A stretch of 64,000 nucleotides of DNA from an uncultured Candidatus Saccharibacteria bacterium (GTDB lineage Bacteria; Patescibacteriota; UBA1384; XYA2-FULL-43-10; 1-14-0-10-43-13): positions 17,192-81,191 of the forward strand of contig CAZGWE010000003.1 of NCBI GenBank assembly GCA_964529405.1, written 5' to 3'. The first letter of the stretch is position 1. Each line of letters opens with the position of its first letter. The position numbers were made by a program, and so were the translations under genes. Of the stretch, positions 6,096 to 64,000 are shown one piece after another. Under the pieces are notes generated by a model. The model made no database searches. It was given only the letters and a program-made list of their open reading frames with translations, and was not told where the DNA came from.

Positions 6096-6162
6096 TTTGT
6101 TCCCAAAGATTTGAAACCAACCATCACAGGTCGGTTCCAGCCCCTCTTTTATTTGGATTTTC

Positions 6163-7056: not shown

Positions 7057-7072
7057 TCTTTGGATCTAAACT

Positions 7073-9698: not shown

Positions 9699-9713
9699 CT
9701 TGGAACGCAGCTT

Positions 9714-23263: not shown

Positions 23264-23420
23264 CTACTTTCCCTTCCACCGGCACGTTTGCCAGTCCTGC
23301 GTATTATACATTTATAGAATAATATGTCAACATCCCTTTCTTGATATACACAGTTAATTATGGTATGGTGGTGAGCTTAGCTAGACTATCAGACAGATAA
23401 GCTAAGCAGAGGGGGACAAC

Positions 23421-23921: not shown

Positions 23922-23933
23922 GAGAGTACCACT

Positions 23934-29069: not shown

Positions 29070-31232
29070 TTACTTTATCTTGATAAGAATACTGTACGGA
29101 TCTTTATAAACCACGCCGCCGCCGCTATACTGCTTCATTAGGCCTAGATTTTGATAATCGTTATTATTAACCCACCAATCCCGCCTGGCTAAAACACCGC
29201 TAAACTTGGCGTAAGAGTACAAAAAGTACGCGGGTCTCTGAGCAACCTCATTGGCGCTATCTATCTCATCCTGAATTGACTGGTAAAGAATCGGATCATA
29301 TTTTTTTACCAGAACCATCTTTTCTTCCGGCTCCTTGATTACCTTTTTTTCCAAATTAAACACGGAAACCTTTGTCCCGCGAGTAATTACTAAATTTTTG
29401 TCTTCATCAATTTTTAACGTAGAAAGAATATTGTCCTCAACCTGCGACGGGTAATCGTTCACGATTTTACTAATCTCCTTCGAAAACTCTGCCTGGTTGT
29501 TAAATTTTGTCTTCTTATATATCGGGATAAAAGTTTTGTTTCCGCCATAGATGTAAGAGATATTGTGGTTGACCTGAGTTGAAAAGATAATACTGTCAGA
29601 TGGAAGTTCCTTTATTTTCTTGATCACGCCTTTTTCGGCCGGGACAACCTGGCCGCCCATAAAGACCGTTCCGATCATAGTCCCGGTGATACCGACCAGG
29701 AGCCCCAGCCAGAGGAGAGCAATAAATATTTTTGAATTAACGATAGACTTACCCCGCTCCTCCGTCTTGGCCAACAATACAATTATTATGAATATCATCG
29801 CCAGCATAATATGCGGCCAGGTCCGGTTTGGAAAGAGGTTTATCCCTATTCGCGGAAATATTTCGGCAATAAAGAGATAAACAAACAGGAAAACAGATGT
29901 TGGCAGCAGCAGCAAGAAAATACTTTTTTCGCCGTTCGGATTAGCCAAGAAACGCCTTTTACTGCAATAGAATAATCCCAAAACAATTATTAAGGCCGCT
30001 ATCATGTTAAGACCGTTATAGAGATAGTAGAGGACAGCGCTCAAGCCCGGCCACCGGATCACACCGTCATCGATATTTGTAAAACTATCCAGAAACCACC
30101 ATTTCCAATAAGGTCCCGCGATAAAATCCAGTATTTTAGCGTAAGACAGCTGAAAGATCTGCGCCGAAACAGCCGACCGTAATGCGTCTAAAAATTGGTT
30201 CATTAGCAATAGATAGGGTAAAATGATGACAAAAGACAGCTTTAGATTTGACCGGACAAACTTAATTGCCTCCCCCTTCCGGCTGATAATCCCCAAAATA
30301 AAAGCCACCAGTGAAGCAAGAAATAAGAATATGCCGAATTCATGAAATCTAAACGAAACGTACGAATAGATTAGGGCGATTGCGGTCAGAAGTATGCTTG
30401 ATTGTTTCACCGAAAGGTAGAGCAAATAAAATACCGGGAGACTGAAAAAGATAACAAATGTTTCCGGTCTGACGTTCTCGCTCATAATTACCAATATAGG
30501 CGAAGCAATAATCAGGTTATATGTTAAAAATGCCAGATGCCTGTTTTTAATTGTTTTGATCAAATCGAAAAGCACAATAGCAGTAAAATAATAAAGCAGC
30601 GGTATTAAGAATTTAGTGAAACCGACGTAATCAATCCCGGCAATGAACTTTGAGTAAACCATAAAGAGGGCAAATCCATTTCGCTGTCCAACTAGCCAGC
30701 TGCTGTCAAAACCTTTGTCTATTATATGACGATAGATATTATAGTACTGGAAGGCATCGATCTCATAAATATATGGATTGAATAACAACCTAATGCCAAA
30801 CAAAACAATCGGAACCAGTGCGAACAAGACCAACCTTTTGTTTTCAGAAGTTAATTTGAATGGCAAAAATTGTTCATTTTGACGGTTCTTTAAGGATGTC
30901 AGGAAGTTCAAACAGAACAATCCCAAGTTTAGACCAATCATAAATATATGGCTTTTGTACTCAGAATAATTTACAACCCCCCGAAAAGCCGTGTAGAAAA
31001 TATAAACTGTGGCAATAGAACTTGTTATATCCAGTGCAAATTTCGTACTCCAGCTAATTTGCTTTGCGCTCTTTCTTAGCAAAACGTCATTTAAGTTATT
31101 TCCCGGCAAGTAGTAGAGTAGCAACACTCCCGGAATGAATTTTAGAAACTCTATACCCGGGTAACGGCCAATAAAGATGACAATTATAAAGACCCCTAAG
31201 ACCAATAAATTTATTACTGTTTTTAGTTTCAC
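29070..31232 (-). CDS. large polytopic membrane protein with C-terminal soluble domain, possible GT-C-type glycosyltransferase
   Basis: 720 aa; N-terminal ~500 aa hydrophobic, C-terminal ~200 aa hydrophilic. Confidence 0.35.
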   Translation of the reverse strand: MKLKTVINLLVLGVFIIVIFIGRYPGIEFLKFIPGVLLLYYLPGNNLNDVLLRKSAKQISWSTKFALDITSSIATVYIFYTAFRGVVNYSEYKSHIFMIGLNLGLFCLNFLTSLKNRQNEQFLPFKLTSENKRLVLFALVPIVLFGIRLLFNPYIYEIDAFQYYNIYRHIIDKGFDSSWLVGQRNGFALFMVYSKFIAGIDYVGFTKFLIPLLYYFTAIVLFDLIKTIKNRHLAFLTYNLIIASPILVIMSENVRPETFVIFFSLPVFYLLYLSVKQSSILLTAIALIYSYVSFRFHEFGIFLFLASLVAFILGIISRKGEAIKFVRSNLKLSFVIILPYLLLMNQFLDALRSAVSAQIFQLSYAKILDFIAGPYWKWWFLDSFTNIDDGVIRWPGLSAVLYYLYNGLNMIAALIIVLGLFYCSKRRFLANPNGEKSIFLLLLPTSVFLFVYLFIAEIFPRIGINLFPNRTWPHIMLAMIFIIIVLLAKTEERGKSIVNSKIFIALLWLGLLVGITGTMIGTVFMGGQVVPAEKGVIKKIKELPSDSIIFSTQVNHNISYIYGGNKTFIPIYKKTKFNNQAEFSKEISKIVNDYPSQVEDNILSTLKIDEDKNLVITRGTKVSVFNLEKKVIKEPEEKMVLVKKYDPILYQSIQDEIDSANEVAQRPAYFLYSYAKFSGVLARRDWWVNNNDYQNLGLMKQYSGGGVVYKDPYSILIKIK

Positions 31233-44968: not shown

Positions 44969-45682
44969 TTATCCCCTAGCTACCACCACTCCCCAAACCT
45001 TCTTAGCACCCGCTTCTTTTAACACCTTGGCGCACTCGTTTAGAGTCGAAAGAGTTGTAGCCACGTCGTCAACCAATAAAATCGTTTTGCCTTCAATAGA
45101 TTCAGCATCGGCAATTCTAAAAGCATCAGTGATGTTGGTCCGGCGTTTGGTACCAGAGAGCTTGGCCTGTGGATCAGTATATCTGGTTCTCTCCAGCGCC
45201 AGACTGCCATGAAGCTCCAGTTCATTCGAAAGATAGCGAGCCAGTAATTCAGCTTGGTTAAAGCCTCTCTCCTTCTCCTTTCGGGGATGCAGCGGCACCG
45301 GCACAACCCACAACAGATCGCCCCGGGGTAGTTTGTATCTTAATCTCTGACAAATTAATTCACCCAGCATCGGCGCCAGTTCCGCTAATCCGCCATACTT
45401 GAGTTCGTGAATCATCTCCTTGGTCGGACCCTGATCATAACGGGCTGAGACGATTAATCCGTCGAGCGATAAATTAAGGCGGCGCTTGCAATTTTGGCAA
45501 AATTCACCATAGCGGTTTATTCGTCCGCACTCCGGACAGGTTGGTGTTTGGATCCTTTCGATCCGGCCGGCGCAATCAAAACAGAGATAAACTCCCTCCA
45601 AGCCGCAACCGACACAGACTTTAGGAAAAAAGATGTCGAGAAAAAGATCCTTGGTTTGTGTTAATAAAGTCTTGGATTGCAT
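44969..45682 (-). CDS. comF: ComF-family protein (phosphoribosyltransferase domain with N-terminal Cys4 zinc finger)
   Basis: CVGCG ... CFDC ... CPECG Cys clusters plus C-terminal ILLVDDVATTLSTL PRTase motif. Confidence 0.75.
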   Translation of the reverse strand: MQSKTLLTQTKDLFLDIFFPKVCVGCGLEGVYLCFDCAGRIERIQTPTCPECGRINRYGEFCQNCKRRLNLSLDGLIVSARYDQGPTKEMIHELKYGGLAELAPMLGELICQRLRYKLPRGDLLWVVPVPLHPRKEKERGFNQAELLARYLSNELELHGSLALERTRYTDPQAKLSGTKRRTNITDAFRIADAESIEGKTILLVDDVATTLSTLNECAKVLKEAGAKKVWGVVVARG

Positions 45683-45878: not shown

Positions 45879-46346
45879 ATGAAGCGCAGAACAACGCGAC
45901 AGGTATCCGAATGTTTCATGTTCCATGAATATAAAGGAGGGACGGTGCAAGAGGGAAATTTGCACGACGACTGGCTCTCTGAGACATCAGAGGGTGAACT
46001 TGCTATAGATGTTTGCCATGATGCGCACAACATCTATATTCTTGCACCTGTCGCTGGTGTCAAGGCTTCTGATGTTGACGTTTCCATTACCGACGAAGTT
46101 GTTACTATTCGCGGCCAACGCAAACCAAACCATGACGTCCCGGAGGAAAAGCACTTCACTCAAGAGTGCTACTGGGGACTTTTTTCTCGCTCCTATGTTT
46201 TGCCCATGGCCGTTAACTCCGAGGAAGCTAAGGCAACCCTTAAGGATGGCCTATTAAAAATTGTCATTCCAAAAGATGCCAAGGTTAAAACAAAAGTTCT
46301 AGAGATCATGGAAGAAGAACCAACATCCCTAATCAAAGAAAAATAA
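45879..46346 (+). CDS. Hsp20/alpha-crystallin family small heat-shock protein
   Basis: AIDVCHDAHNIYILAPVAGV ... VSITDEVVTIRGQRK ... LKDGLLKIVIPK alpha-crystallin domain; start may be internal Met at 45921. Confidence 0.7.
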   Translation: MKRRTTRQVSECFMFHEYKGGTVQEGNLHDDWLSETSEGELAIDVCHDAHNIYILAPVAGVKASDVDVSITDEVVTIRGQRKPNHDVPEEKHFTQECYWGLFSRSYVLPMAVNSEEAKATLKDGLLKIVIPKDAKVKTKVLEIMEEEPTSLIKEK

Positions 46347-46364
46347 TTGTTATGGAATTTTGCA

Positions 46365-47246
46365 ATGAAAAAAATACGTAAAGCCGTCGTTCCTGCTGCG
46401 GGGTACGGAACAAGATTTTTGCCCGCTTCAAAAGCTATGCCGAAAGAAATGCTGCCAATTGTTGACAAACCGGTTATCCAATATGTCGTCGAGGAGCTGG
46501 CTGAGGCTGGGATAGAGCAGATTATCATTGTTACCGGTTGGCACAAGAGAGCGATTGAAGACCATTTTGACCGCCATCTGGAGCTTGAGCACAAACTCGA
46601 GACAGCCGGAAAAGAAGCGCAGTTAAAAACGATCCGCGACTTATCGAACCTGGCAGAATTTGTTTATGTCAGGCAGAAAGAAGCGCGCGGCAACGGCGAC
46701 GCGATTTTAACGGCCAAGAATATCATCGGCAACGAGCCTTTTGTTGTGCTTTGGGGCGATGACTTTATTGTGGCTGAACCGTCCCGCACCAGACAGCTGA
46801 TCGAGGCTTACAACAAATACGGCACGACCATCGCCGCCGGCATCCGGACCAGCAAACCCGAAGATTATAAACGTTACGGCTACGTCAAGGGCGAAGAGAT
46901 CGAACCCGGCATCATCAAAATCTCCGAATTGGTCGAAAAACCGGGACCGAAAAATCCCCCCTCCAATCTGGCCGTCGTCTCCGGTTTTGTTTTCCCGCCG
47001 GAGATCTTTAATGCCCTGGAATACTATGAAACCGAAATCGGCCAGGAACTGGTCTGGGTTGACGGCGTCAATGTGCTTCGAGATCAGGGCCAGGATGCTT
47101 ATGCCACTGAAATCAAGAGCGGCAAATATTATGACTGCGGCAACATTACAGAGTATTTGAAAACCAATGTTGAGATGGCTTTGCGCCGCGACGATATTAA
47201 TGGCGAATTCAAAAAATTCATCAAAGAAACAGCACGGGGATTGTAA
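46365..47246 (+). CDS. galU: UTP--glucose-1-phosphate uridylyltransferase
   Basis: KAVVPAAGYGTRFLPASKAMPKEMLPIVDKPVIQY and VVLWGDD motifs. Confidence 0.85.
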   Translation: MKKIRKAVVPAAGYGTRFLPASKAMPKEMLPIVDKPVIQYVVEELAEAGIEQIIIVTGWHKRAIEDHFDRHLELEHKLETAGKEAQLKTIRDLSNLAEFVYVRQKEARGNGDAILTAKNIIGNEPFVVLWGDDFIVAEPSRTRQLIEAYNKYGTTIAAGIRTSKPEDYKRYGYVKGEEIEPGIIKISELVEKPGPKNPPSNLAVVSGFVFPPEIFNALEYYETEIGQELVWVDGVNVLRDQGQDAYATEIKSGKYYDCGNITEYLKTNVEMALRRDDINGEFKKFIKETARGL

Positions 47247-47339
47247 GTTTATAAAGTTATTAAAGTTTGTAAGGTTTATAAAGTTCGTAAAGTAAAACAG
47301 TAATTACCATTGAACTTTATAAACTTAAGGCGGAGGGAC

Positions 47340-48722
47340 ATGTCCTCTTTTAAACAGGTTTGGAAAATCAGTAAATATATCGCCTGCGCGATTATTTTTT
47401 CGATTGCCCTCTCCGGTTGCACCCTGACGGGCAAAAAGCAGACAACCGATGCCGATGCCAAAAAAATCGTCGTCTGGAGTTTTGAAGAGGAGGACGTCTG
47501 GAAGCAGGTTATTAAAGATTTTCAGAACCAGGCCAAAGATTACGCCATCACCTATGAAAAGCAAACTTTTGATGCCAATTATGAAAACCGGGTTTTGAAT
47601 TCTATGCTGGCCGGCCAGGGTCCCGATGTCTGGGCTATGCCGAATGACTGGGTTTATCGCCACAAAGAAAAGCTCTATCCGATGCCAGACTCCCTAGCCA
47701 AAACGGTCAATTTGGACAACCAATACGTGCCCTCGGTCAAACAATCAGTTTTATTTGATAACAAAATTTATGCCCTAACTCCCTCGGTTGAACCACTGAT
47801 GGTTTTTTACAATTATAAAATGTTTGATTCCCGGCTGGCCGAACTGAAAAAATCAACCAAAGACAAGACGGAAACCGACAAATACAATTCGCTGCTTAAA
47901 GAAGTACCAAAAACCTGGACCGATTTTGCCGAAGCGGCTAATTTCCTGACGATTAAAAACGGCGAGAACATAACCACTTCGGGGGTCGTCCTGGGCACGG
48001 CCAATATTGCCAACGCCAGCGACATTCTCTATTTTCTGATGGCACAGAACGAAACCGACATCCTGACCGCGGATTATTCTCTGGCCACCTTTAACCTGCC
48101 CAAAAACACCGCCACCGGAGAAAACGATACTCCCGGACAAAGGGCGCTGGAGTTTTACGCCTCCTTTGCCGATCCTAATTCCCAAAATTACACCTGGAGC
48201 GATTCGCTCGGCAACGATCTGGAAGCGTTTGGCGCCGGCAAGGCTGCTATGATCCTGGGTTACTCCAGCCTTCAAAATTACCTGGCGCAAAAGTATCCGA
48301 ATTTGCAATACAAAAAAGCCTTTATGCCCCAGGTTGACCAGGATTCGGAAAAAATTACCGATTTTGCCCGTTTCACCGCTTTCGGCGTTAACCGGCTGTC
48401 CAAAAATCCGGGGGCGGCATGGACATTAGTCAATACGCTCGGCACAAAAAGCTCCAACGCTTTCAGTTCTGCCACCAAAACATATACCTCCAAAAAACAG
48501 CAGGGTATCAACACGTCCATCACCAAAAGAACTGGCAACAGTCCGGAGAAGACGGCCGTGGCCATTGCCAAAACGCTAGTCAAAGGCCGTTATCCGATCG
48601 AATTCGACCGTTACATCAGAGCAGCCGCCGAAAATGTTAACGATGGCAACCAAGACCCGAAGTCGGCTCTCGACCTTGCCGCCAGCACCATTACTGAATT
48701 ACTAAGAAAGAAGGACTGGTAA
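47340..48722 (+). CDS. extracellular solute-binding lipoprotein (ABC-type SBP family 1-like) without adjacent permease genes
   Basis: Signal peptide with lipobox IALSGC and a ~440-aa periplasmic-binding-protein-like body (WSFEEEDVWKQVIKDF...). The RBS GGAGGGA lies upstream. Confidence 0.6.
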   Translation: MSSFKQVWKISKYIACAIIFSIALSGCTLTGKKQTTDADAKKIVVWSFEEEDVWKQVIKDFQNQAKDYAITYEKQTFDANYENRVLNSMLAGQGPDVWAMPNDWVYRHKEKLYPMPDSLAKTVNLDNQYVPSVKQSVLFDNKIYALTPSVEPLMVFYNYKMFDSRLAELKKSTKDKTETDKYNSLLKEVPKTWTDFAEAANFLTIKNGENITTSGVVLGTANIANASDILYFLMAQNETDILTADYSLATFNLPKNTATGENDTPGQRALEFYASFADPNSQNYTWSDSLGNDLEAFGAGKAAMILGYSSLQNYLAQKYPNLQYKKAFMPQVDQDSEKITDFARFTAFGVNRLSKNPGAAWTLVNTLGTKSSNAFSSATKTYTSKKQQGINTSITKRTGNSPEKTAVAIAKTLVKGRYPIEFDRYIRAAAENVNDGNQDPKSALDLAASTITELLRKKDW

Positions 48723-48742
48723 AGTTAGCCAAAGATATTTTT

Positions 48743-49096
48743 ATGCTCAATAATCAACGCTACGCAATAATATTTCCAAAAGCCCTGGCTGCCGACGACA
48801 AGCTTAAGGTCGGCGTGCCGGTCAAAAACGGCCAGGAAACTTACACCGGTTCCAAGAGCAACCCCATTTATCAGCAATATATGTCCGACCTCTACTCCTT
48901 TGCCATTATTCTCGGCGCCTCTTTAGCCACCCTAATGATTGTTTACGCCGGATATAAATATATGACCTCGCAGGGTAATCAAACCGCTCTCAATGATGCC
49001 AAAGAGGTCCTGACCGGAGCACTGCTCGGTTTAGCCATACTTCTGCTGATTCGAGTCATTTTAAATTTTCTAGCCATGCCCGATGTGACGAGTTAA
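48743..49096 (+). CDS. small two-helix membrane protein, VirB2/TrbC-like (T4SS-pilin-like) candidate
   Basis: 117 aa with the pattern helix1 (AIILGASLATLMIVYAGYKYMT), short polar loop (SQGNQTALNDAKEV), helix2 (LTGALLGLAILLLIRVIL). It has the same architecture as three other modules in this locus. Confidence 0.4.
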   Translation: MLNNQRYAIIFPKALAADDKLKVGVPVKNGQETYTGSKSNPIYQQYMSDLYSFAIILGASLATLMIVYAGYKYMTSQGNQTALNDAKEVLTGALLGLAILLLIRVILNFLAMPDVTS

Positions 49097-49100
49097 TACT

Positions 49101-52100
49101 ATGTTCCACCTAAAGAACCTTCGGAAATTTACCCGCCTCTCCGTCTTTGCCGGAGCATCTTTGCTGCTGTTTTTTATTGTTGCCTTCAGTTATAATAATT
49201 TTTTTGCCGGCGCCGATACGGAAATTTCAGTCTATTGCCGCAACAACACCGTCATTAACCCCAATTGCGACGAAGACCACTTCGTTGTTTTTAATATTCA
49301 AAAATATTTGACCGACCCCGAGGCAATCAAAAAAGTCGCGGCCTTGGACGGATACCTTTTAGACAACGGCAGAGACGCCAAAATGCCGGTCGGGCTAGAA
49401 CCCGATGAAATTGACGACATTTACGATCAGAACGGCAAACAGGTCGGCGACGGCTACAAGGCCTGGTCGGCTGTCAAAAGGCTCTACCAGACAGTTGCTT
49501 CAGCCGCTGCCCGGGACAAAAACTCGGTCAACCAGGGTTTGGCCAACCGTTCCATCCAGGAGATAGACCGCCGGATAAGCACGAGCTTGGCCAGCTACCA
49601 GCAAAGCGGTGACAAATTTGTCGTTTACAATGTCTCTAAACACATTAGAAAAAAGGCTGACCGGGAAGCTTTGGCCGCTTTTCTGAAGGCAAACGACATT
49701 GGTTTTATCAGCTATGACACAAACGCCGATATTGCCAATCTCTATCCGACTATCAGCGATTCCATTATTGGTGATATTAAGCTCGACAGCCTCAATCTGG
49801 CTGTTTGGAAAAATATTGCCACCCTTTACAAAGCGGTTAACGCCAGCGCCAAAACGCGGCCCGCTGAAGCCGAAAACGATATCGGCCAATCCCGCATGTC
49901 TTACGACGCAATCAACGCCAAAACCGCCGGGTACAAGCCTTCGACCAGCGGCTACGAACGCGTCACCGAAAACGGCCAAGAATATTTCCTCATCGGCAAC
50001 TATTCAAAGTGGCTCTCAAAAGATGATTTGAAACAAATCCAGGAAAATGATGCTCTCTTTGCCGGCAAAACGATCCGCAACGCCTTTACCGGCCAATTTA
50101 TCAAGCTGCCCGTTAGTATCAACCCCGAAAGCGACATTTCATCCGGGCATACGCCACTGACAAATTCTATCGCCGGAAAGGTCGTTTCAATTTACCAGGT
50201 CGTCTTCAATGCCGGCGAAGCCACCGATAAGGATGTTGACGACTCGAAGGCCTCTATCGAGAGTTTGGGCCGGTTTATCAGCGATTACTATGCGCAGAGG
50301 GGATGCGATAACGCCAACTACTCTTTCGGCCTTAGCGGCAGCAATGTTATGATTTGCGACTTTTCCAAGAAACTTAGCAAGAGCTCTTACATGGCAATCA
50401 ACCAGCTGGTTGTCCATATCAAACAGGTTGCAGGCAAAGAACTGCCGATTGTCGCCGTCAACGATAATTCAATCAAATCCGATTCTGTCACCATCCCCAG
50501 GGTCTATGGCGCCGGCAACGTCGTCATTTACGACAACAACGACAAGAAGGGTTGGCAAGCGGTCGTTGAACTTTACCGCTATATTTTCAACAATGCCCGC
50601 GACGATCAGGCAGAATTGAAAAGCGATGTCGCTGCCTCCATTAACACTATTGAAGATAGTGCAAAAAACCCGCCGGTTTATGTTCTTCTCGGCACCGGCA
50701 AAGGCAATAAATGCGAACAGGGAGACAGCCACTGCCAGCTCCAGGTTTTTAAGAGTTTCGCTTCATGCAAAAATTTAAAACAGGGCGATGACCAAAATAT
50801 AACGGTTGATGATATGTCATGTATCATTAGTAATCCTGGCGACAACAATGGCGAGTATTTTGAACCGAAAGAAAATTCCAAAGCCCGCAACCTACTCAAA
50901 GCCGTTCTGGCAGCAACCACAAATGCCGATGATAAAGTAATAATCCAAGCGTTTCTTGACGATTATGAGTCGCAGTTTCTTGGCGAGAGTAGCGACGGCA
51001 ATGTTAGACTCGCTGCACCGAAGCTATTGAAACAAACTAGCCCTGACGGGCTGAGCGGATTCCAGAATTACGGCGCTAATGTACCGCTCAAATATAATAT
51101 CGATATAAATGAATCTCTCACTAGAAAATTGGCTGCGTCTGGGAATGATTATAAACTCGGAATATCTGCCTATGTCAGCAATGGCTCAAATGCTGACGGC
51201 AGGCTCATTGGAGTATCAGAAGCAAAAAACAGTGGAGAAATTATTTGGAATGCAAACGCCTCGAGTGACCCTGATCTTAAATCTTACGTTGAAATTGGCA
51301 AGCATAAATTTACAACAGTACTTTTTGCTTATGATCAGACGGTAGGACTACCGTCTTCCGGCGATCAAGCCGTAGAACCCGACAATGTATATAGTAAGCT
51401 CGGGTATGACTTCGAAATTGTCGGTCCCAATGGTGAACGCGACCCCTCGCAGGTACTCAGCGACAATCCAGATTCATGTACCGGCGGGAAGATTTCTATC
51501 GTTGCTCCCAGTATTGTCAAGCCGGCAAACACCGCCAACATTACCGCAAATGTAACGCCGCCAAAAGTCAGCCGATCAGACGGAGCTACAGACATCTTTG
51601 AAATCTCTATCTCTATTAACAAGTCTCCTCTCGGCACAAAACCGGAAGATTTGCCAAAACCGGAGACAGTTACTAACTGGTCTCTAAAAACCAGGGGCGA
51701 TTTCAGCAATAGTACACAAACTCCTCAAAAAGTCTCAATAGACGACGCTCACGCCTGGCCCAATCCAACGTCTGATGAGGGTATCCATTACATTAAAGTT
51801 CAAACATTTACGGTTATAGACGGAGCAAAATATTGTACTGGCGTCGCCTACAAAGCAATCACCTTAGACAAAGCAGCTCCAGAAGATAAGTGTAGATTAG
51901 TTGGCGGCAAAAAGGTCTGCGATGGCGATGAAGAAGCCGGGGCGCCCTCCCGACCGGCTTTGCCGGCTGGCGAGGGTTCATCCATTGGAACGCTCCCTGA
52001 TTTAGTTAACCGGATTATCGATATTTTCTTCTCTGTCATCGGAGCCCTGGCCGTGCTTGGTAATGTCATTGGTGGTATTATGTACCTGACAGCCGGAGGA

Positions 52101-52235
52101 GATAGCGGCAAGGCCGAGAAGGCCAAAAAAGCGGTTCTTTACTCCTCCATCGCAGTCATTATCGCCGTTACGGCCTACGTCATCTTGCATGCGTCCGTCG
52201 GAACCATTAATCAGATTATTACCGGGAGAAAATGA
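49101..52235 (+). CDS. large secreted/surface protein (1044 aa) with N-terminal signal-anchor and C-terminal VirB2/TrbC-like pilin-like two-helix module
   Basis: The N-terminus LSVFAGASLLLFFIVAF is hydrophobic. About 930 aa are hydrophilic with several Cys pairs. The C-terminus IIDIFFSVIGALAVLGNVIGGIMYLTAGGDSGKAEKAKKAVLYSSIAVIIAVTAYVIL aligns by eye with the flanking small proteins (shared YLTAAG / G-D/N-x-x-K-A-E/A-K-K core). Confidence 0.55.
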   Translation: MFHLKNLRKFTRLSVFAGASLLLFFIVAFSYNNFFAGADTEISVYCRNNTVINPNCDEDHFVVFNIQKYLTDPEAIKKVAALDGYLLDNGRDAKMPVGLEPDEIDDIYDQNGKQVGDGYKAWSAVKRLYQTVASAAARDKNSVNQGLANRSIQEIDRRISTSLASYQQSGDKFVVYNVSKHIRKKADREALAAFLKANDIGFISYDTNADIANLYPTISDSIIGDIKLDSLNLAVWKNIATLYKAVNASAKTRPAEAENDIGQSRMSYDAINAKTAGYKPSTSGYERVTENGQEYFLIGNYSKWLSKDDLKQIQENDALFAGKTIRNAFTGQFIKLPVSINPESDISSGHTPLTNSIAGKVVSIYQVVFNAGEATDKDVDDSKASIESLGRFISDYYAQRGCDNANYSFGLSGSNVMICDFSKKLSKSSYMAINQLVVHIKQVAGKELPIVAVNDNSIKSDSVTIPRVYGAGNVVIYDNNDKKGWQAVVELYRYIFNNARDDQAELKSDVAASINTIEDSAKNPPVYVLLGTGKGNKCEQGDSHCQLQVFKSFASCKNLKQGDDQNITVDDMSCIISNPGDNNGEYFEPKENSKARNLLKAVLAATTNADDKVIIQAFLDDYESQFLGESSDGNVRLAAPKLLKQTSPDGLSGFQNYGANVPLKYNIDINESLTRKLAASGNDYKLGISAYVSNGSNADGRLIGVSEAKNSGEIIWNANASSDPDLKSYVEIGKHKFTTVLFAYDQTVGLPSSGDQAVEPDNVYSKLGYDFEIVGPNGERDPSQVLSDNPDSCTGGKISIVAPSIVKPANTANITANVTPPKVSRSDGATDIFEISISINKSPLGTKPEDLPKPETVTNWSLKTRGDFSNSTQTPQKVSIDDAHAWPNPTSDEGIHYIKVQTFTVIDGAKYCTGVAYKAITLDKAAPEDKCRLVGGKKVCDGDEEAGAPSRPALPAGEGSSIGTLPDLVNRIIDIFFSVIGALAVLGNVIGGIMYLTAGGDSGKAEKAKKAVLYSSIAVIIAVTAYVILHASVGTINQIITGRK

Positions 52236-52558
52236 GCAGCCGTTTAATCGAAAAAATATTTGCAGCCAAAACACCGACAACAATCTGGAATGGTGGTTCC
52301 TTTAACGGTGCCGATCCCAACAAAGGCTTGGGCGATATCAAGAACTTTATTGACGACACTGTAACAGTTGCGTTAAATGCTGCCATTGTGGTAGCATTGT
52401 TAATGATATTATATGCATCATTTCAATATGCGATGTCCTACGGGGACGAGAACAAGGCAGAGACTGCTAAAAAAACTCTCATCTGGTCGATCGTAGGATT
52501 AGCTGTCGTTGCCGTAGCTCGAACTGCAGTTAGCCTGCTTAAAAAAGAATTGAGCTAG
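52232..52558 (+). CDS. small two-helix membrane protein, VirB2/TrbC-like (T4SS-pilin-like) candidate
   Basis: 108 aa; VALNAAIVVALLMILYASFQYAMSYGDENKAETAKKTLIWSIVGLAVVAVA; 4-nt overlap with upstream large gene. Confidence 0.4.
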   Translation: MSSRLIEKIFAAKTPTTIWNGGSFNGADPNKGLGDIKNFIDDTVTVALNAAIVVALLMILYASFQYAMSYGDENKAETAKKTLIWSIVGLAVVAVARTAVSLLKKELS

Positions 52559-52641
52559 AGCTGGGGCAATCTTCGAACGAAGCGAGAACTTCGCGGGTTT
52601 TTCACTATCGTTCGAAGAAACAACTTAAAAGAGGAGGAGAA

Positions 52642-52968
52642 ATGAACTTAGTAGAAAGAGCGTTCGCAGAATTGTCCGGCAGCGGTACTAGTATTTCAAT
52701 AAACCCTGATACTGACACTGCCCCAACAAGCATTCAAGATTTCATTTTCAGTGCGATAAGTAATGTTATCATTCCAATCGCAGGCGCAATTGCCGTCCTT
52801 TATTTAATCTACTCAGGCATTCTTTATCTTACTGCCGCTGGTAATCCGGACGCAGCTAAGAAGGGACAGCAGGGTGTTGTTAATGCTATTATCGGTATAA
52901 TAATTATTGCTCTATCTTATGTAATCATTAAAGCAGTTTCTGGCACAGTCGGCGGAACAACAATTTAA
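52642..52968 (+). CDS. small two-helix membrane protein, VirB2/TrbC-like (T4SS-pilin-like) candidate
   Basis: 108 aa; IPIAGAIAVLYLIYSGILYLTAAGNPDAAKKGQQGVVNAIIGIIIIALSYVII; RBS AAGAGGAGGAG upstream. Confidence 0.4.
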   Translation: MNLVERAFAELSGSGTSISINPDTDTAPTSIQDFIFSAISNVIIPIAGAIAVLYLIYSGILYLTAAGNPDAAKKGQQGVVNAIIGIIIIALSYVIIKAVSGTVGGTTI

Positions 52969-52978: not shown

Positions 52979-53025
52979 AAGCCGCCTTATTTCTAGAAAT
53001 AGATTTAGGAGCGGCTTTTTTTGTT
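52979..53025. terminator. rho-independent terminator (likely bidirectional) between pilin-like operon and pilB
   Basis: AAAGCCGCC ... GGAGCGGCTTTTTTTGTTTG; stem GCCGC/GCGGC with T-run. Confidence 0.5.
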
Positions 53026-53035: not shown

Positions 53036-54700
53036 TTAGCTCTTCGTTACTCGCCAGACCTCTTCAACCGTCGTTTCGCCCTTGAGGGCCTTAATCAGGC
53101 CGTCCTGCTCCATCGTCACTATACCCTGGGCTACGGCCGCTCTTTCAAATTCCGTAATAGAGGCTGTTTTGGCCAGCAAACCCTCGATCGAGCTGTCGGG
53201 CACCAAAACTTCGATCACCACCTCGCGGCCGGAGTAGCCGGACTTGGTGCACTTGTCGCAACCCTTGCCGCGGTGCAAAAGAGGAGCGGCGCTATCAAGC
53301 AATTTAATAACATCCGGGCTAAGCCTCTTCTTGATCGGTTCCATTAACCGCTTTACCTCCTGCCAGATCTCCGGCCTCGGCGCGTATTGCTCTCTGCAGT
53401 TGGCGCAAACTTTTCTAACCAGGCGCTGGGCCATAACCAGATTAATCGAACCGGAAAGAAGATAAGGTTTGACGCCCATCTCCAGCAAACGGGCAAAGAC
53501 AGCCGGGGCCGAGTTGGCGTGGATGGTCGAAACAAGCAGGTGGCCCGTCAGAGCCGCCTGTACCGCTATTTCGGCCGTCTCGACATCGCGTATCTCGCCA
53601 ACCATTAAAACATCGGGGTCTTGGCGCAGGGAGGCTCTAAGGCCATCGGCAAACTTGTACCCGGCGGCGTTATCCACTTGGCTCTGTTCAATACCCTCAA
53701 TCCGGTATTCAACCGGGTCTTCTAAAGTGATGATTTTAATGCCCGGCTTATTTAGCGCCATTAAAATAGCATAAAGAGTCGATGATTTGCCGCTGCCGGT
53801 CGGACCGGAAGTCAAAATCATACCGTGGGGCTTGGAGATTGCTTCTCTGATCGCTGCCAAGGCTTCGTCCCGGAAGCCCAATTTATCGAGGGCCAAAATT
53901 GATTTAGCCTGGCCCAAAATCCGAATGACGATTGACTCGCCGAAAGAAGACGGCATAATCGATATGCGCAAATCAATCGTTTCATTATCAAGCTCTTTAA
54001 CTGAAAAGCGGCCGTCCTGGGGCTGGCTGGCGATATCCATACGCAGCTTTGCCAAGTATTTAATTCTGGAAATCAGCTGCTTATATCGGGGTAGAGGCAG
54101 CTTGACCACATCCTGTAAAACGCCGTCAACCCGGTATCGAACCAAAAACTCCTTCTCCTCCGGTTCCAGGTGGATATCGGAGGCTTTTGTCTTAAGAGCG
54201 CCGATAATTATGACGTCCAAAAGCTGGGTGACGCTCACTTTTTTGGCCGCGATACCGACCGAACCCAAATCGCTGATATTAATATCAAAATCTTCCTCTT
54301 TCGGCGCCACATCGCTGTTATCCTGCATTTTGGCCGCTTCCCTTTTTAACGTCTCGTAAAAAGTGATGCCGTAGAGAAAACTTGTCTGGGAAATAACGGA
54401 GATAACAAACTCCACACCCACGGTCTGGCTGTGGCGCTTCAAAAAGTCCATCGTGGCCGGGTCGGCGGGATGGACCACTCCCACCCGGACCGAGCGGCCA
54501 AGTTTGAGGTAAGGAATAACCCGGAATTGGATCGCCAAATTTTCCGGAATAGCGTCAATCACTTCTTTGGTTATGGGATAAGAGGTCAGATTGATATAGG
54601 GTAGGTTGAGCTTGTTTGCCAGCTCCCGGGTGTGATGCTCCTCCTGCTCCCGATTCAAGTGGTAAATTGTTTTTGTGATATCGGTCATAATAATTAGCAC
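53036..54700 (-). CDS. pilB: type II secretion/type IV pilus assembly ATPase (GspE/PilB family)
   Basis: Walker A LTSGPTGSGKSSTLYA, Asp box, Walker B LMVGEIRD, His box, tetracysteine CANC ... CDKC; two N-terminal T2SSE_N-like domains; 554 aa. Confidence 0.85.
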   Translation of the reverse strand: MLIIMTDITKTIYHLNREQEEHHTRELANKLNLPYINLTSYPITKEVIDAIPENLAIQFRVIPYLKLGRSVRVGVVHPADPATMDFLKRHSQTVGVEFVISVISQTSFLYGITFYETLKREAAKMQDNSDVAPKEEDFDINISDLGSVGIAAKKVSVTQLLDVIIIGALKTKASDIHLEPEEKEFLVRYRVDGVLQDVVKLPLPRYKQLISRIKYLAKLRMDIASQPQDGRFSVKELDNETIDLRISIMPSSFGESIVIRILGQAKSILALDKLGFRDEALAAIREAISKPHGMILTSGPTGSGKSSTLYAILMALNKPGIKIITLEDPVEYRIEGIEQSQVDNAAGYKFADGLRASLRQDPDVLMVGEIRDVETAEIAVQAALTGHLLVSTIHANSAPAVFARLLEMGVKPYLLSGSINLVMAQRLVRKVCANCREQYAPRPEIWQEVKRLMEPIKKRLSPDVIKLLDSAAPLLHRGKGCDKCTKSGYSGREVVIEVLVPDSSIEGLLAKTASITEFERAAVAQGIVTMEQDGLIKALKGETTVEEVWRVTKS

Positions 54701-54709: not shown

Positions 54710-54799
54710 TGGCGGAAGCGAGAGGATTCGAACCTCTGAGCCGATTGCTCGACTAACGGTTTTCGAGACCGCCACATTCGACCGCTCTGTCACGCTTCC
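54710..54799 (-). tRNA. tRNA-Ser (anticodon CGA)
   Basis: Minus-strand cloverleaf with acceptor stem GGAAGCG/CGCUUCC, anticodon stem GCGGU/ACCGU and loop CUCGAAA. It has a long variable arm, a T-arm AGAGG-UUCGAAU-CCUCU, and an encoded CCA. Confidence 0.75.
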
Positions 54800-56897: not shown

Positions 56898-56942
56898 CTT
56901 GGTATATTTTTGGTACAACTATTGCAGGGAGAACAAACGCCA

Positions 56943-58343
56943 ATGGATAAAAACGAAATATGGAAAAACGTCTTAGGCGAGCTGGAGGTCAGCATCTCTA
57001 AGCCGAACTTCGAAACCTGGTTTAGAAACACATTTCTGATTGATTACAAGAAAGGCTATTTTACAATCGGAGTGCCAACAATATTTATAGAAGACTGGCT
57101 TAGAAAGAAGCATTTGCGCGAGATACTACAAGCCTTACAGAAACAGGTTGACGACCAGGTACTGGGCATTAAATTCAAAATAGCTTCGCCTTCTCCCGAA
57201 CAAAGAATCTCTCTTGATAAAACTAAAGTTATCCACAAGCCTGTGGATAAACCCGCCGGACAAACAGCCTCAACCGGTGTCCAATTATTGCCTAAAAACA
57301 TCACCTTGAATGACGATTATAAATTTACCAATTTTATCGTCGGCCAATCAAACCAACTGGCCCATGCGGCTTCCCTGGCTGTTGCCAGCAAACCCGGCAC
57401 TATGTATAATCCGCTTTATATCTACGGCAACTCCGGATTGGGTAAAACCCATCTGATGCAAGCCATCGGCCACTCATACCTCGAAAATTATCCGGGCAAA
57501 AATGTTCTTTACGTGACGTCTGAAACATTCATTAACGAATTTATCAACGCTGTCGAAGCTGGACACGGCAAGGCCAAGAATTTCAAAGACCATTACCGCA
57601 ATGTTGATATCCTATTAATAGACGACATCCAGTTTCTCTCCAATAAAGAATCAACGCAGGAAGAATTCTTCCACACTTTTAACCATCTTCATCAAAATAA
57701 GAAGCAAGTAGTGCTTACCTCCGACCGGCCGCCCAAAGACATTAAGGGCTTGGAAGTCAGGCTAAAAACCCGTTTTGAAGGCGGCATGGTAGCCGATGTT
57801 ACCACACCGGATTTTGAAACAAGGGTGGCTATACTCAAACAAAAAGCCAAAAAGCTGAATATTGTTTTTAAAGAAGAAAAAATTGACGAAGTCCTGCATT
57901 TGATCGCCGAAAATATCCAATCTTCAATCAGGGAACTTGAGGGAACATTTACCAAAATTATTGCCACTTGCAACCTTGAGGGGAGTACGATCAACAAAGA
58001 CCGGGTTGCCTCCATTCTAAGCGGTATAATCCAAAAGAAAAAACAGGTTGTCACTCCGGAGTTAATTCTGCGGGAAGTCCATAAATTTTATCAGATTCCG
58101 CTCGAAGACATCCTGGGCAAAAAACGTACCAAGGAGATAGTTCTGCCGAGACAAATCACGATGTACCTGCTGCGCCATGAAGCTAATATGTCCTATCCGG
58201 AGATCGGCAAAAAAATCGGCGGCAAGGACCATTCAACCATTATCCACGGCTGCGAAAAGATTGAAGCCGATATTTCGGACAACCAGAGGATAAAAGAAGA
58301 CCTGGCTGTTTTGAAAGAAAAGATATACGCCATGGTACGATAA
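56943..58343 (+). CDS. dnaA: chromosomal replication initiator protein DnaA
   Basis: EIWKNVLGELEVSISKPNFETWF N-domain, GNSGLGKTHL Walker A, LLIDDIQF Walker B, C-terminal DNA-binding helix-turn-helix; start at ATG 56943. Confidence 0.95.
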   Translation: MDKNEIWKNVLGELEVSISKPNFETWFRNTFLIDYKKGYFTIGVPTIFIEDWLRKKHLREILQALQKQVDDQVLGIKFKIASPSPEQRISLDKTKVIHKPVDKPAGQTASTGVQLLPKNITLNDDYKFTNFIVGQSNQLAHAASLAVASKPGTMYNPLYIYGNSGLGKTHLMQAIGHSYLENYPGKNVLYVTSETFINEFINAVEAGHGKAKNFKDHYRNVDILLIDDIQFLSNKESTQEEFFHTFNHLHQNKKQVVLTSDRPPKDIKGLEVRLKTRFEGGMVADVTTPDFETRVAILKQKAKKLNIVFKEEKIDEVLHLIAENIQSSIRELEGTFTKIIATCNLEGSTINKDRVASILSGIIQKKKQVVTPELILREVHKFYQIPLEDILGKKRTKEIVLPRQITMYLLRHEANMSYPEIGKKIGGKDHSTIIHGCEKIEADISDNQRIKEDLAVLKEKIYAMVR

Positions 58344-61174: not shown

Positions 61175-61444
61175 ATGAAACAATTAAACGAATTTTTATG
61201 GTCAAGCCTTGGCAAGAAGGGCCTCCGCAAGGAAGCAGAAGCCTCTTACGTTTGCTTTGTAGCAGCCGAGTGGGGCAAGGGCCGTTTTGGCGCCACATCT
61301 TTTTCCAGAGGGATTTTGAAGCTTTCCGTCGGCTCCTCTGCCGCCGCCCAGGAGGTGCAGATGGAGACGGAAAAACTGACCGATTTTGTCAACTCGAAAA
61401 TCGGCAAAAAAATAGTCAAAAGAGTACGGATACTTGTCGGTTAA
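61175..61444 (+). CDS. DUF721-like small protein (possible DciA-type helicase-loader homologue)
   Basis: ~90 aa, basic, immediately after recF where DUF721 genes characteristically sit. No strong motif was read, so the call rests on context and size. Confidence 0.3.
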   Translation: MKQLNEFLWSSLGKKGLRKEAEASYVCFVAAEWGKGRFGATSFSRGILKLSVGSSAAAQEVQMETEKLTDFVNSKIGKKIVKRVRILVG

Positions 61445-63996
61445 AATCCGATGTGCGTGAATGATACGGTTTGGGGATTGTCCCACAATCCGGCCCGAGT
61501 GCCGGCCGGGTTATCCGGCGATCCGGAAGCGCAGATGCCGTTGGCGGCAAAGTATCCCTCCCCCATTTTCTTACAAACGTTATCGTCAACCAGCTGGTTC
61601 CAGTAGGCCACATCTTCGGCCCGGCCGGTCATAATTTGGTTGGGGATGACATCGCGGTAGAGCGGGTTGTACTGCATTTGTAATAAGTCGCCGATAAGCT
61701 GGCGGGCACGGGTTTGGGCCGCCAAAATTGTATTTTGTTGATGGGTAACAATGTTCAGGCCGTCCCAGGTCGGGATGCCGGTCGAATTGACAGCATCCCT
61801 GGCCTTTTGGTCATCGGAGGCGTTATTACCGGTCGAGTAAAAACCGTCGGCCGTGCATCTGACGTCAGTCCGGTAAACCCCAAACAGATTCATATAGAGA
61901 ATCATGCCCAATTGGACATAAATCATCCAGGGCTGGATACCCGTTTTGGCGATCATGCCGAGGGCTTTCATTGCCATGGGCACGCCGACGCTGATGGCAA
62001 TACCGGCCATCATTTGGGTTGTGCCCGGTGCCAGATTGAGGGAGTCGTCAACGGAAGCAAATGATTTACTGAAAAGCTTGTCGATAATGGTCGTGACGGC
62101 AAAGGTAACGACGGCGACTTTAGCCGTGTCAAGATTGCTTTCAAGTTTCTGCTGCTGGTCAGATGCTTGCTGCAGGCCCAATCCGTTGGCATCGATTGAT
62201 TTACCGGTCTCAATATTTTTAAACGTGCCGTCGGCTTGTTTGATATAAGTGCCGGTACTGACGGTCACCTTTCCGCCGGTTTTGACGACGCCGTTTAGGT
62301 TTTGGACATTATCCCAGGCAGCCCGAATGGCGCCGGCATTAAATGCGTCTCGGGCGGCTTGGGCTTTCCGCATTTGGTCGTATAAACTGTAAGCCTGATA
62401 AATGGTACCGGCCGGAATGTGAAGTTGTTTGTCGGCCCAATTAAAGACAAGACGTTTTAATTCGTTGGTGGCTGCTCTTTGGAGTGTCGGCGCATGAAGT
62501 TTGCCCTTGGCACCGGCGTAGTAGCCATCGGTGATATTATTTCCACTCATACCCCAGTTGCCCGTGCTAACACCGACAAGTATAGCGTCGATCGTGCCCT
62601 CCGGCAATTTGAAGTCGATGGCGTTGGATACAAATTCGCTAAATTTAGTCTTAAAGAAAGCAAACGATTTGTCGCGATTGGAGAGAAAATCATCCAGCTC
62701 GCCCGGCCGGTTAAGATTGACAATGTGGTCGATTGCCAATGCCCACTCGGCGGCATCGCTGATTTTGTGAATATCGGTGCCAAAGAGTTTGCCGTTTTCG
62801 GCGCCGTTTAAGAGATATGTGCCAAGCGCCTTTAGTTTAGTCTCGCCATTACCCTTGATCAGATCCCAGGCAAAGCCCGGGTAAACATTTTTATCCATTT
62901 TCCAGAGGGTGGCATCCATCAGGCGGTATTCGAGCGCTTCGCGAAAATTGGCCCGGGTTTCCTTTTTGCCCTGTTCCTCCGCCTGGCGCATGGCTTTTAA
63001 TTGCGCCTGGTCGTAAACGGCCTGCTCACAGGCGGTTTGCTCGGCCGTCGGGGTTGCTGTTGTTTCAGCTGCCGGATCATAACTCTGACAAGCCCGGCTG
63101 GCAATAATGCCCCTGTTGGTTGCTTCTTTTGACTCTAACTGCACCCTTTGAGCTTGGACTTTGGCAACCATTTCGGCATCGGAAACCTGGATGCCCGTGT
63201 TATGTCTCATCGCATAGCGCTCTCCGGCAGCGATATTATCCGGGGTGCGGGCGGCGCCGGTACCGGCGTTGTGATTGCGGACAATTTGCTGTATCGGATC
63301 ATCGCTGCCGGCAACCGGCCCATGAATTGTACTGCCAAAAGGCCGGGCCTGTTCGCCGGGGACAGTCACGGCGGCATCGGTGACGAGAGGATATTGGGCC
63401 GCAACCGCGCCGTAACTTTCCGAATCGGCGTCACCGACAATGGCGAACTTAATGTCGGCATAAGAAACCTGCAATCCGGACGGCAGCTGATCCTCCTGTC
63501 CTGTCTCATTAATGAAGCGGTTCATCGCATAGGAGAGTCCGGCGATTTCGAGATAACGCAAATCGCCGTTAAAGACAAGCTCGTTGATATCGCCGGCCGG
63601 CATAATGAGCGTCCCGTGCGTCGCCGTACTAATAGCCGAACCGATACGGTTTGAAATGATTGTTTTAACCGAGCCAAGCTGGCTTAGGGCTTGTTTGATC
63701 TTGGACTCATTGCTGCCGCCGTCGTTACGGCGATTGCTTTCGCAATTTTCTATTGCCCGGCTTATATTTTGGTCCATGTTGGCACTTTGGCCGTTCATAA
63801 AAGGTTGATAATTGTCAGGATCGGCGCAAAAGAGCTTGCGTTCCTCGACTTTTTGGTCGATGCAATTGTTGATCGCTCTTTCTCTGAGCATCGATCTTAA
63901 AGTCTCGTTTTTGGATTGGTTGTACTGCAATTTGTCTTTGTCGCTCATAGAATCAAGAAAGTTAGCCGAGCAGCCGGCTCTAAAATCTGCCCGCAT
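61441..63996 (-). CDS. large (>850 aa) unknown protein with C-proximal transmembrane helix pair; may start beyond right edge
   Basis: Complete ORF in the track with its first ATG at 63994-63996, and the frame is still open at the window edge. It is mostly hydrophilic, Ala/Gly/Asn/Gln-rich. Hydrophobic segments VAVVTFAVTTII and MMAGIAISVGVPMAMKALGMI ... WMIYVQLGMILYMNLFGVY lie about 250 aa before the C-terminus. Confidence 0.45.
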   Translation of the reverse strand: MRADFRAGCSANFLDSMSDKDKLQYNQSKNETLRSMLRERAINNCIDQKVEERKLFCADPDNYQPFMNGQSANMDQNISRAIENCESNRRNDGGSNESKIKQALSQLGSVKTIISNRIGSAISTATHGTLIMPAGDINELVFNGDLRYLEIAGLSYAMNRFINETGQEDQLPSGLQVSYADIKFAIVGDADSESYGAVAAQYPLVTDAAVTVPGEQARPFGSTIHGPVAGSDDPIQQIVRNHNAGTGAARTPDNIAAGERYAMRHNTGIQVSDAEMVAKVQAQRVQLESKEATNRGIIASRACQSYDPAAETTATPTAEQTACEQAVYDQAQLKAMRQAEEQGKKETRANFREALEYRLMDATLWKMDKNVYPGFAWDLIKGNGETKLKALGTYLLNGAENGKLFGTDIHKISDAAEWALAIDHIVNLNRPGELDDFLSNRDKSFAFFKTKFSEFVSNAIDFKLPEGTIDAILVGVSTGNWGMSGNNITDGYYAGAKGKLHAPTLQRAATNELKRLVFNWADKQLHIPAGTIYQAYSLYDQMRKAQAARDAFNAGAIRAAWDNVQNLNGVVKTGGKVTVSTGTYIKQADGTFKNIETGKSIDANGLGLQQASDQQQKLESNLDTAKVAVVTFAVTTIIDKLFSKSFASVDDSLNLAPGTTQMMAGIAISVGVPMAMKALGMIAKTGIQPWMIYVQLGMILYMNLFGVYRTDVRCTADGFYSTGNNASDDQKARDAVNSTGIPTWDGLNIVTHQQNTILAAQTRARQLIGDLLQMQYNPLYRDVIPNQIMTGRAEDVAYWNQLVDDNVCKKMGEGYFAANGICASGSPDNPAGTRAGLWDNPQTVSFTHIGF

Positions 63997-64000
63997 AGCA

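Follow-up and report, generated by a model that had tools for sequence, protein, structure and literature searches.

Four classes of VirB2-like pilin modules encoded near dnaA in a Berkelbacteria-like lineage: a putative heteromeric surface fibre or conduit with a host-contact domain

Introduction

What does an uncultured patescibacterium build from a series of small two-helix proteins encoded close to dnaA, when one copy of the same module forms the end of a secreted protein of 1044 amino acids (aa)? The question is raised by positions 47340-52968 of a 64,000-nucleotide (nt) stretch of contig CAZGWE010000003.1 (assembly GCA_964529405.1; hereafter the window, whose coordinates are used unless a locus of a relative is named). 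Here, the gene of a solute-binding lipoprotein (SBP) is followed by four genes whose products end in two-helix modules, referred to as classes 1 to 4 in gene order. Patescibacteria rely on physical contact with host cells, and a VirB2-like pilin array is essential in the single species tested, Southlakia epibionticum, where it lies inside a type IV secretion system (T4SS) gene cluster (Wang et al. 2023, PMC10633639). A first-pass annotation of the window had proposed a pilus-like structure made of VirB2-like subunits, with the large protein displayed on it. We followed this up by profile searches, structure prediction and comparison of related loci. The explanation that we consider moderately likely is that the locus is this lineage's VirB2-like pilin array and builds a heteromeric surface fibre or conduit, in which class 2 would display a host-contact domain and the SBP would serve as an accessory factor.

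Results

The four modules are established members of one pilin family. The three small open reading frames (ORFs; 48743-49096, 52232-52558 and 52642-52968) and the C-terminus of the 1044-aa protein (49101-52235) have the common architecture described earlier, in ORFs whose coordinates and sizes were found to be exact: two hydrophobic helices surround a polar loop of 10-14 aa rich in K, A and E in all four proteins. In the profile hidden Markov model (HMM) search suggested by the first-pass annotation, each module scored above the PF18895 (T4SS_pilin) gathering score of 26.6 bits, with 31.5 (class 1), 39.0 (class 2), 40.1 (class 3) and 40.6 bits (class 4). Judged by these profile scores, the matches are far beyond chance, and precomputed annotation of P0001-P0004 agrees with the assignment. 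For PF04956 (TrbC/VirB2; 27.9 bits), the best score was obtained by the class-3 pilin (25.7 bits, E = 1.3e-5), just below the threshold, followed by the class-4 pilin (E = 0.12); the remaining two modules gave no match, and none of the four reached the threshold. Among the NCBIfam HMMs, NF045849 ('pilin-like conjugal transfer' of the Mycoplasma integrative and conjugative element, ICE) matched weakly and below its threshold. Thus, the assignment to a VirB2/TrbC-like family, as claimed earlier, finds support in all three profiles.

Helix 1 ends in a conserved Y...G motif, in full Y-x-(T/M)-(S/A/T)-x-G-(D/N); the motif had been recognized before, in a version one residue too long, the invariant part being Y-x4-G. 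Direct reading of the four sequences revealed no type IV prepilin leader or class III signal peptide (a short basic stretch cleaved between G and F/M-x-x-x-E), in line with the first-pass annotation, and the two helices are C-terminal, unlike the single N-terminal hydrophobic helix of type IV pilus (T4P) pilins. Paralogous modules within the array share 18-33% identity. An AlphaFold model of the class-4 pilin, based on a 64-sequence alignment, is a hairpin with helices at residues 31-63 and 69-105 and a core predicted local distance difference test (pLDDT) value >90.

Small proteins with two transmembrane (TM) segments are also typical of phage holins, and PF18895 occurs in conjugative elements as well, so that the genes might be thought to encode holins or to be part of a mobile conjugative element. 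A holin match was what the first-pass annotation had named as speaking against its own proposal; a PHROGs search of the modules gave no holin or other phage match. Moreover, no relaxase, integrase or T4SS genes were found in the window, tblastn against plasmids returned nothing, and the chromosomal, origin-proximal position is conserved across many species. We consider the holin or mobile-element explanation extremely improbable; the PHROGs result, the plasmid search and the conserved chromosomal position effectively refute it.

The array was then placed among its relatives. Scanning GTDB species genomes with the SBP yielded 16 loci and scanning metagenomes with a pilin profile yielded 79, and all of them were annotated with a pilin-module HMM built from 120 small homologues. 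The relatives are labelled Patescibacteria or Candidatus Berkelbacteria. The order SBP, class 1, class 2, class 3, class 4 is present in the 16 GTDB species genomes and in most of the 79 metagenome loci. Wherever sequence suffices, the wider arrangement is ComFC / HSP20 - GalU - SBP - pilins / PilB - yidC - rnpA - dnaA. This is the outcome of the synteny check called for earlier: gene order is kept across related genomes.

Positional orthology of the modules is equally established. Of 59 modules from 15 non-redundant loci, 51 are nearer to a module of another genome, almost always one at the same position, than to their own paralogues; those that deviate stem from recent duplication of the last class. 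Class-1 pilins are 54-56% identical to the position-1 pilins of other genomes and class-3 pilins 44-49% identical to those at position 3; the class-2 module is orthologous to the position-2 modules; and class 4, the best-conserved class and one often duplicated in relatives, is 46-64% identical to pilins at positions 4/5. Because the best cross-genome matches lie at the same position, these are four old classes in a fixed order. In addition, each class keeps its own tail motifs, which together with the positional matches indicates that the classes are not interchangeable variants. Class 4 is a candidate for the bulk (major) subunit in view of its conservation, its duplication and a strong ribosome-binding site of its own.

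These data bear directly on the view that the paralogues form a redundant, interchangeable set for antigenic or host-range variation, as has been suggested for paralogous arrays (PMC12102498). The 18-33% identity between paralogues is what has been reported for such arrays, the class-2 ectodomain is hypervariable, and class 4 is sometimes duplicated, all of which would be compatible with it. However, the same-position matches of 51 of the 59 modules, the class-specific tail motifs and the fixed gene order argue for old, subfunctionalised classes with variation concentrated in one of them. A redundant set is therefore very unlikely.

The variable element is the class-2 protein (49101-52235, plus strand), which is Sec-exported and comprises a Sec-type signal peptide (49101-49214; aa 1-38, hydrophobic segment at aa 9-33, predicted cleavage between AGA and D), an ectodomain of ~920 aa (49215-51977) and a C-terminal pilin module (51978-52235) with two helices and the loop GGDSGKAEKAKK. 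PF18895 covers aa 964-1029 of the protein and the custom HMM aa 960-1040. A word-indexed homologue search with the 1044-aa protein returned only the protein itself. An exhaustive HMMER search of 1.84 billion cluster representatives retrieved three relatives of the ectodomain (1170, 1180 and 1502 aa), and a pilin module ends every one of them. The fusion is therefore genuine, and the ectodomain is fast-evolving. No internal repeats were found in the ectodomain by BLAST self-comparison; a targeted alignment gave weak support for four repeats of ~115 residues in its N-terminal half (z-scores up to 5.4), and its C-terminal part is predicted to be beta-rich.

Across genomes, class-2 proteins range from 99 to 1204 aa, though the position-2 module is orthologous throughout; classes 1 and 3 are enlarged now and then in relatives. 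Of 265 pilin-module ORFs in the metagenome loci, 55 have at least 200 aa and 19 at least 600 aa. Some related loci provide natural fusions of modules. An ectodomain is joined in a single chain to class-2 and class-3 modules in L019 (11748-14078) and L020 (12023-14380) and to class-2 and class-4 modules in L018 (8739-10220), and two-module proteins behind one ectodomain are also found in L094, L041, L039, L037, L070, L069, L056 and L030. Many of the metagenome loci encode two-module proteins of this sort. The two-module fusions would be four-TM proteins by prediction. Such tandem fusions are expected only if the partner classes stand side by side, in the same orientation, in one assembly, and thus they argue for that arrangement. 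Separately, locus L001 encodes (4018-5388) an extra secreted protein of 456 aa between its class-1 and class-2 pilin genes, with a weak Big_1 (Ig-like) signal.

Which side of the membrane these domains occupy was examined with two sets, 21 pilin-module proteins with an N-terminal extension of at least 60 aa for topology and the 120 small pilins for composition. Signal peptides divide the long from the short forms. All 21 long-extension proteins have an N-terminal hydrophobic segment, which was flagged as signal peptide (SP)-like in 20; that of the remaining protein, from L011, falls narrowly under the SP threshold but looks like a signal peptide on inspection. Shorter-tailed pilins have no such segment, with one exception, the 101-aa pilin of L007. 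In the window, the 1044-aa protein is the only pilin-module protein with a Sec signal peptide. Signal peptides on the long forms and not on the short ones argue that the N-terminus faces outward and, as homologous modules must share their topology, that the loop is cytoplasmic in all of them. The composition of the 120 small pilins shows a K+R density of 0.168 in the loop vs 0.056 in the N-terminal tail, which is net negative. VirB2 and TraA have the same topology, with both ends outside and the loop in the cytoplasm. We infer from these sequence features that the ~920-aa domain is extracellular and tethered to its module.

How the short forms are handled may be reflected in their first residues. 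In about 90% of the 120 small PF18895 pilins, a Sec-type hydrophobic leader is missing and the protein starts with a strongly conserved motif of 9-11 aa, with the consensus M-N-[LW]-[IV]-[ED]-[KR]-[AV]-[YFL]-A-[AQ] (P0005-P0121). The versions of this mini-leader in the window are MNLVERAFA (52642-52671), LIEKIFAA (52232-52270) and IFPKALAA (48743-48796). In a few members of the family, a classical signal peptide ends at the same A-x-A position before Q, and P0089 carries both. The mini-leader may mark a site of processing or act as a tag for recognition.

Further evidence on the extensions comes from an unrelated lineage without the SBP (L098), which has a ten-gene pilin-module array. One of its proteins (7802-9922) consists of an N-terminal pilin module and six PKD domains, and it adjoins a PKD-repeat protein of 1002 aa (4708-7716). 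The PKD fusion supports an adhesin-type role for such extensions. The earlier proposal of a displayed, pilin-anchored ectodomain thus gains ground from three sides, namely signal peptides confined to the long forms, the basic loop between the helices, and the PKD fusion elsewhere. The class-2 ectodomain is probably a hypervariable host-contact element that would touch the host cell. An adhesin is also favoured by the wide size range of class 2, by the pilin module at the end of all three relatives of the ectodomain and by the weak Ig-like signal of the extra protein in L001.

The first gene of the block encodes the SBP (47340-48722, plus strand), an SBP_bac_1-like lipoprotein of 460 aa with the lipobox LSGC and an ATG at 47340 behind GGAGGG. 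The window SBP has no Pfam match and matches NF053763 (GanS) in its N-terminal region only (E = 7.7e-10); orthologues at 56-60% identity carry PF01547/PF13416. The family is a tight orthologous group with 142 matches, the best 120 of which are all at least 44% identical. In every related locus with enough sequence, the SBP gene stands directly 5' of the pilin genes, and the genes abut or overlap. The linkage is kept even at 26-30% SBP identity (L078:8419-10821, L079:6770-10309, L082:6942-10330 and L087:3504-7801), and in L078 it persists with every other neighbour different (subtilases, bactofilin, H+-pyrophosphatase). Neither the window nor the related loci were found to encode an ABC permease or ATPase that could partner the SBP. 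The description of the SBP as an orphan is thus right as regards an ABC partner in the window; the protein is no bystander, being the array's most faithfully linked partner. The lack of an ABC partner and the linkage to the pilins together mark the SBP as a component of the pilin module. SEML1_0023 of S. epibionticum was considered as an SBP counterpart and rejected, since it is an STT3-like glycosyltransferase.

The machine that would assemble the subunits is not encoded nearby. Genes for VirB4, VirB6 or VirD4 were found neither in the 64 kb of the window nor, in relatives, up to 10 kb from the array, and the expected co-occurrence with secretion machinery was therefore not seen within that range. 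VirB4 has been reported in 2,417 of 3,035 Patescibacteria assemblies; pilin genes lie near virB4 in 1135 of 1948 assemblies and away from it in ~40% of the assemblies having both (PMC12102498). Since pilin genes are often far from virB4, a distant T4SS is plausible.

The only candidate motor beside the array is a PilB/GspE-type ATPase (53036-54700, minus strand; MshEN and T2SSE domains; PF00437, 405 bits), whose gene is convergent with the pilin genes. PilB stands alone, without PilC, PilM or PilT next to it, in the place between the array and yidC/dnaA that is filled by VirB4, VirB6 and PrgI in S. epibionticum. Nearly all related loci show this adjacency of array and PilB; it is kept at 43% PilB identity (L079 and L087) and after changes in the neighbouring genes. 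On these grounds it could be argued that this PilB, and not a VirB4 T4SS, powers the extraction and assembly of VirB2-like subunits in a hybrid machine. However, the gene lies on the opposite strand behind a terminator, the protein has the full PilB/GspE architecture expected of an ordinary T4P motor, and the pilins have no class III signal peptides. Moreover, L078 and L082 have the SBP-pilin block with no PilB next to it, and synteny is generally conserved in this origin-proximal region. PilB-driven assembly is improbable in our judgement, and a functional link between PilB and the array is treated as a minority possibility because the gene is convergent and behind a terminator.

The block 47340-52968 is probably one transcription unit. 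The class-1 pilin (48743-49096; 117 aa) has the class-specific tail VGVPV...Y-T-G and a mini-leader in ...KALAA; the class-3 (52232-52558) and class-4 (52642-52968) pilins have 108 aa each; and all are on the plus strand. The close spacing and overlaps noted before were found as described: the gaps are, in order, 20 nt, 4 nt, a 4-nt overlap (ATGA) of the class-2 and class-3 genes, and 83 nt. In the last gap, a small GC hairpin with a T-run (52578-52600, plus strand; fold z = -1.5, not significant) precedes the strong Shine-Dalgarno sequence GAGGAGGAG of the class-4 gene; the hairpin may be an attenuator or a transcript-processing site.

The first-pass annotation had bracketed the block with two terminator-like hairpins. 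The downstream one, between the pilin block and pilB (52979-53025), is a bidirectional intrinsic terminator (-21.9 kcal/mol, z = -5.3, followed by T7). The upstream one (47273-47327, plus strand), 5' of the SBP gene, does not hold as a terminator: it is an AT-rich inverted repeat (fold z = -3.5) that has no U tract and is not conserved. It may be a regulatory site. The inverted repeat is made up of the 12-nt sequence GTTTATAAAGTT, which occurs in three copies, two direct and one inverted, in 47247-47327. This motif was considered as a conserved operator and rejected, being missing from related loci, where other short AT-rich repeats stand in its place.

Upstream, the conserved neighbours comprise ComFC (44969-45682) on the minus strand and, on the plus strand, HSP20 (45879-46346) and a GalU-like nucleotidyltransferase (46347-47246), all of which we treat as context. 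A tRNA-Ser gene (54710-54799) also neighbours the array. On the downstream side, yidC, rnpA and rpmH lie between the array and dnaA (56910-58343), and dnaN and recF are also downstream; the locus is therefore origin-proximal.

Several other features of the window were recorded. A giant protein conserved downstream of dnaN-recF-dciA is represented by its last 850 aa, encoded by an ORF at 61441-64000 (minus strand) that runs past the window end; its full length is ~2,760-2,800 aa in L001 and L023. The protein lacks Pfam domains and contains hydrophobic segments close to the C-terminus. A sugar-metabolism cluster contains two multi-domain fusions of an unusual kind, one of 961 aa (16646-19531; GtrA, ribulose-phosphate 3-epimerase, nucleotidyltransferase and histidine phosphatase) and one of 694 aa (7073-9157; cytidylyltransferase and class-III aminotransferase). 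A glycosyltransferase/rhamnose-biosynthesis cluster includes two large polytopic proteins (27163-28896 and 29070-31232, minus strand), each with at least 10 predicted TM segments and no Pfam match, which may be glycan polymerases or transferases. Finally, 22001-24000 has a G+C content of 0.55 vs ~0.44 and contains an ORF of 339 aa (22244-23263, minus strand) with no Pfam match.

Discussion

If the locus indeed builds a VirB2-type surface structure, each module would be inserted in the cell membrane as a two-helix hairpin whose termini are external and whose basic loop is cytoplasmic, the topology of VirB2 and TraA. The short N-terminal tails (at most 55 aa) would cross the membrane without a Sec signal, having the 9-11-aa mini-leader instead. 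In class 2, the short tail would have been exchanged for the 920-aa ectodomain, for which a cleavable Sec signal peptide would be needed, and one is present. The subunits would polymerise together, and the resulting heteromeric surface structure would most likely be a fibre or conduit of VirB2 type and short length, with class 4 as the bulk subunit and classes 1-3 as low-copy subunits. A VirB4-type T4SS whose genes lie in another part of the genome would assemble it, and the class-2 ectodomain would be shown outward as a host-contact or adhesin element. The SBP would be an obligatory extracytoplasmic accessory factor, perhaps a chaperone, an assembly factor or a ligand sensor.

Several results weigh against this proposal. 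Fold searches with the module returned only generic hairpins, such as ATP synthase subunit c; the family profile found no solved conjugative pilin among PDB sequences (best E = 0.66); and, as mentioned, plasmids gave no tblastn match. With neither a sequence match nor a specific fold match to solved pilins, homology to pilus-forming VirB2 is carried by Pfam-level evidence. The long Sec leader of VirB2, TrbC and TraA was not found in the small subunits, and VirB4, VirB6 and VirD4 genes are missing from the range searched. The ectodomain has no Pfam domain and no recognisable adhesin domain, and a single-sequence AlphaFold2 model of the 1044-aa protein was unusable (pLDDT 35). In addition, no VirB2-type pilus has been shown for any Patescibacterium, and its existence has been called a possibility (PMC12857230).

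Part of this evidence would suit a membrane-resident complex in place of a fibre. In such a complex, the modules would be oligomerising anchors that form, together with the SBP, a receptor or uptake platform for host-derived molecules, and the class-2 ectodomain would be membrane-anchored. The very tight and ancient coupling of SBP and pilins and the lack of nearby T4SS machinery speak for it; the four-TM tandem fusions would fit a bundle within the membrane equally well, and fold searches cannot separate the module from generic hairpins of the subunit c type. On the other hand, the PF18895, PF04956 and NF045849 matches all point to conjugation-type pilins, the positionally equivalent array of S. 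epibionticum lies inside a T4SS gene cluster, and an SBP that served uptake has no permease or ATPase partner in the window. We therefore regard the membrane complex as unlikely, though it is an explanation to be taken seriously, and retain the heteromeric fibre or conduit as the preferred one.

A bolder version of the fibre proposal can be formulated, which we offer as speculative and rather doubtful. The locus would be a self-contained, SBP-led heteropolymer of four VirB2-type classes, detached from the T4SS cluster, with one class acting as an evolvable scaffold for swappable host-recognition domains (0 to ~1100 aa, PKD in other lineages, and fusable in tandem to the next subunit). Recognition of the 9-11-aa tag (M-N-L-I-E-K-A-Y-A) would take place on the outer side of the cell, perhaps with the SBP in the part of a pilin chaperone or usher, and assembly might be carried out by the solitary PilB and not by VirB4.

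The locus offers handles on the structure made by such arrays, namely four fixed subunit classes and tandem fusions that name neighbouring subunits. The hypervariable class 2 is an obvious candidate for host recognition, and the handling of such monoderm pilins may become clearer through the SBP partner and the N-terminal tag. Should the class-2 ectodomain set the host range, cross-genome comparison could pair uncultured epibionts with their hosts.

Comparison with known systems

The core pilin array is already known. In a survey of 3,035 Patescibacteria genomes by means of PF18895 and PF04956, Quinonero-Coronel et al. (2025) described VirB2 arrays of 2-11 genes that follow one another directly or with a single non-pilin gene between them, often near dnaA/rnpA/rpmH (PMC12102498); the available part of the T4SS paper's supplement contains no Berkelbacteria entries. 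The window array resembles these arrays in its PF18895 modules (with or without weak PF04956), its tandem divergent paralogues and its closeness to dnaA. Its size and setting also agree with theirs, in that four consecutive pilin-module genes are found in a patescibacterial genome with dnaA nearby; virB4 is not close, which is not obligatory for such arrays. In S. epibionticum, six pilins of 103-185 aa (SEML1_0014-0019) are followed by Hsp20, ComF and tRNA-Ser, a few genes from dnaA (PMC10633639). The window array has the same Hsp20, ComF and tRNA-Ser neighbours and thus very probably corresponds in position to this essential array.

Differences from the published arrays are that the window array is led by an SBP, comprises four positionally orthologous classes and is not beside VirB4/VirB6/PrgI. 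The pilins of S. epibionticum do not exceed 185 aa, whereas class 2 here carries an ectodomain of ~920 aa, and the published interpretation as host-range variation differs from the fixed classes found here. The first-pass annotation had considered the whole architecture undescribed. This does not hold for paralogous arrays near dnaA, which have been published (PMC12102498, PMC10633639); the giant fusion we did not find described in open-access texts. Nor did we find in these texts a description of the fixed four-class organisation, the tandem-module fusions, the SBP partner or the mini-leader. Domain-architecture databases probably show such fusions implicitly.

With the VirB2, TrbC and TraA pilins, the modules share a hairpin of two helices, a similar size, a basic loop and the inferred topology, and their PF04956 scores are sub-threshold. 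The classical pilins differ in their long Sec leader and adjacent VirB machinery, and the host of the window array is a monoderm. To our knowledge, no natural VirB2 with a large fused ectodomain has been described. The Mycoplasma ICE and pLS20 families (NF045849, NF045848, NF045890) match the four modules weakly, and NF045848 and NF045890 are longer proteins that combine a pilin-like module with extra sequence. However, all scores are below the curated cut-offs, and these are families of mobile elements, whereas the present locus is chromosomal and origin-proximal.

Conjugative pili have a width similar to 8.6 nm. Cryo-electron tomography of another Patescibacterium has revealed a tube 8.6 nm wide and 61 nm long that bridges epibiont and host (PMC11880426), which we take as a lead only. 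The division of labour suggested for the window array also has parallels in VirB5 of T-pili, in large minor pilins and in PilY1/PilC of type IV pili, where a fibre made of a small major subunit acquires its binding domain through a low-copy subunit. Those tip adhesins are unrelated proteins; here, the candidate adhesin is covalently fused to a copy of the putatively polymerising module itself.

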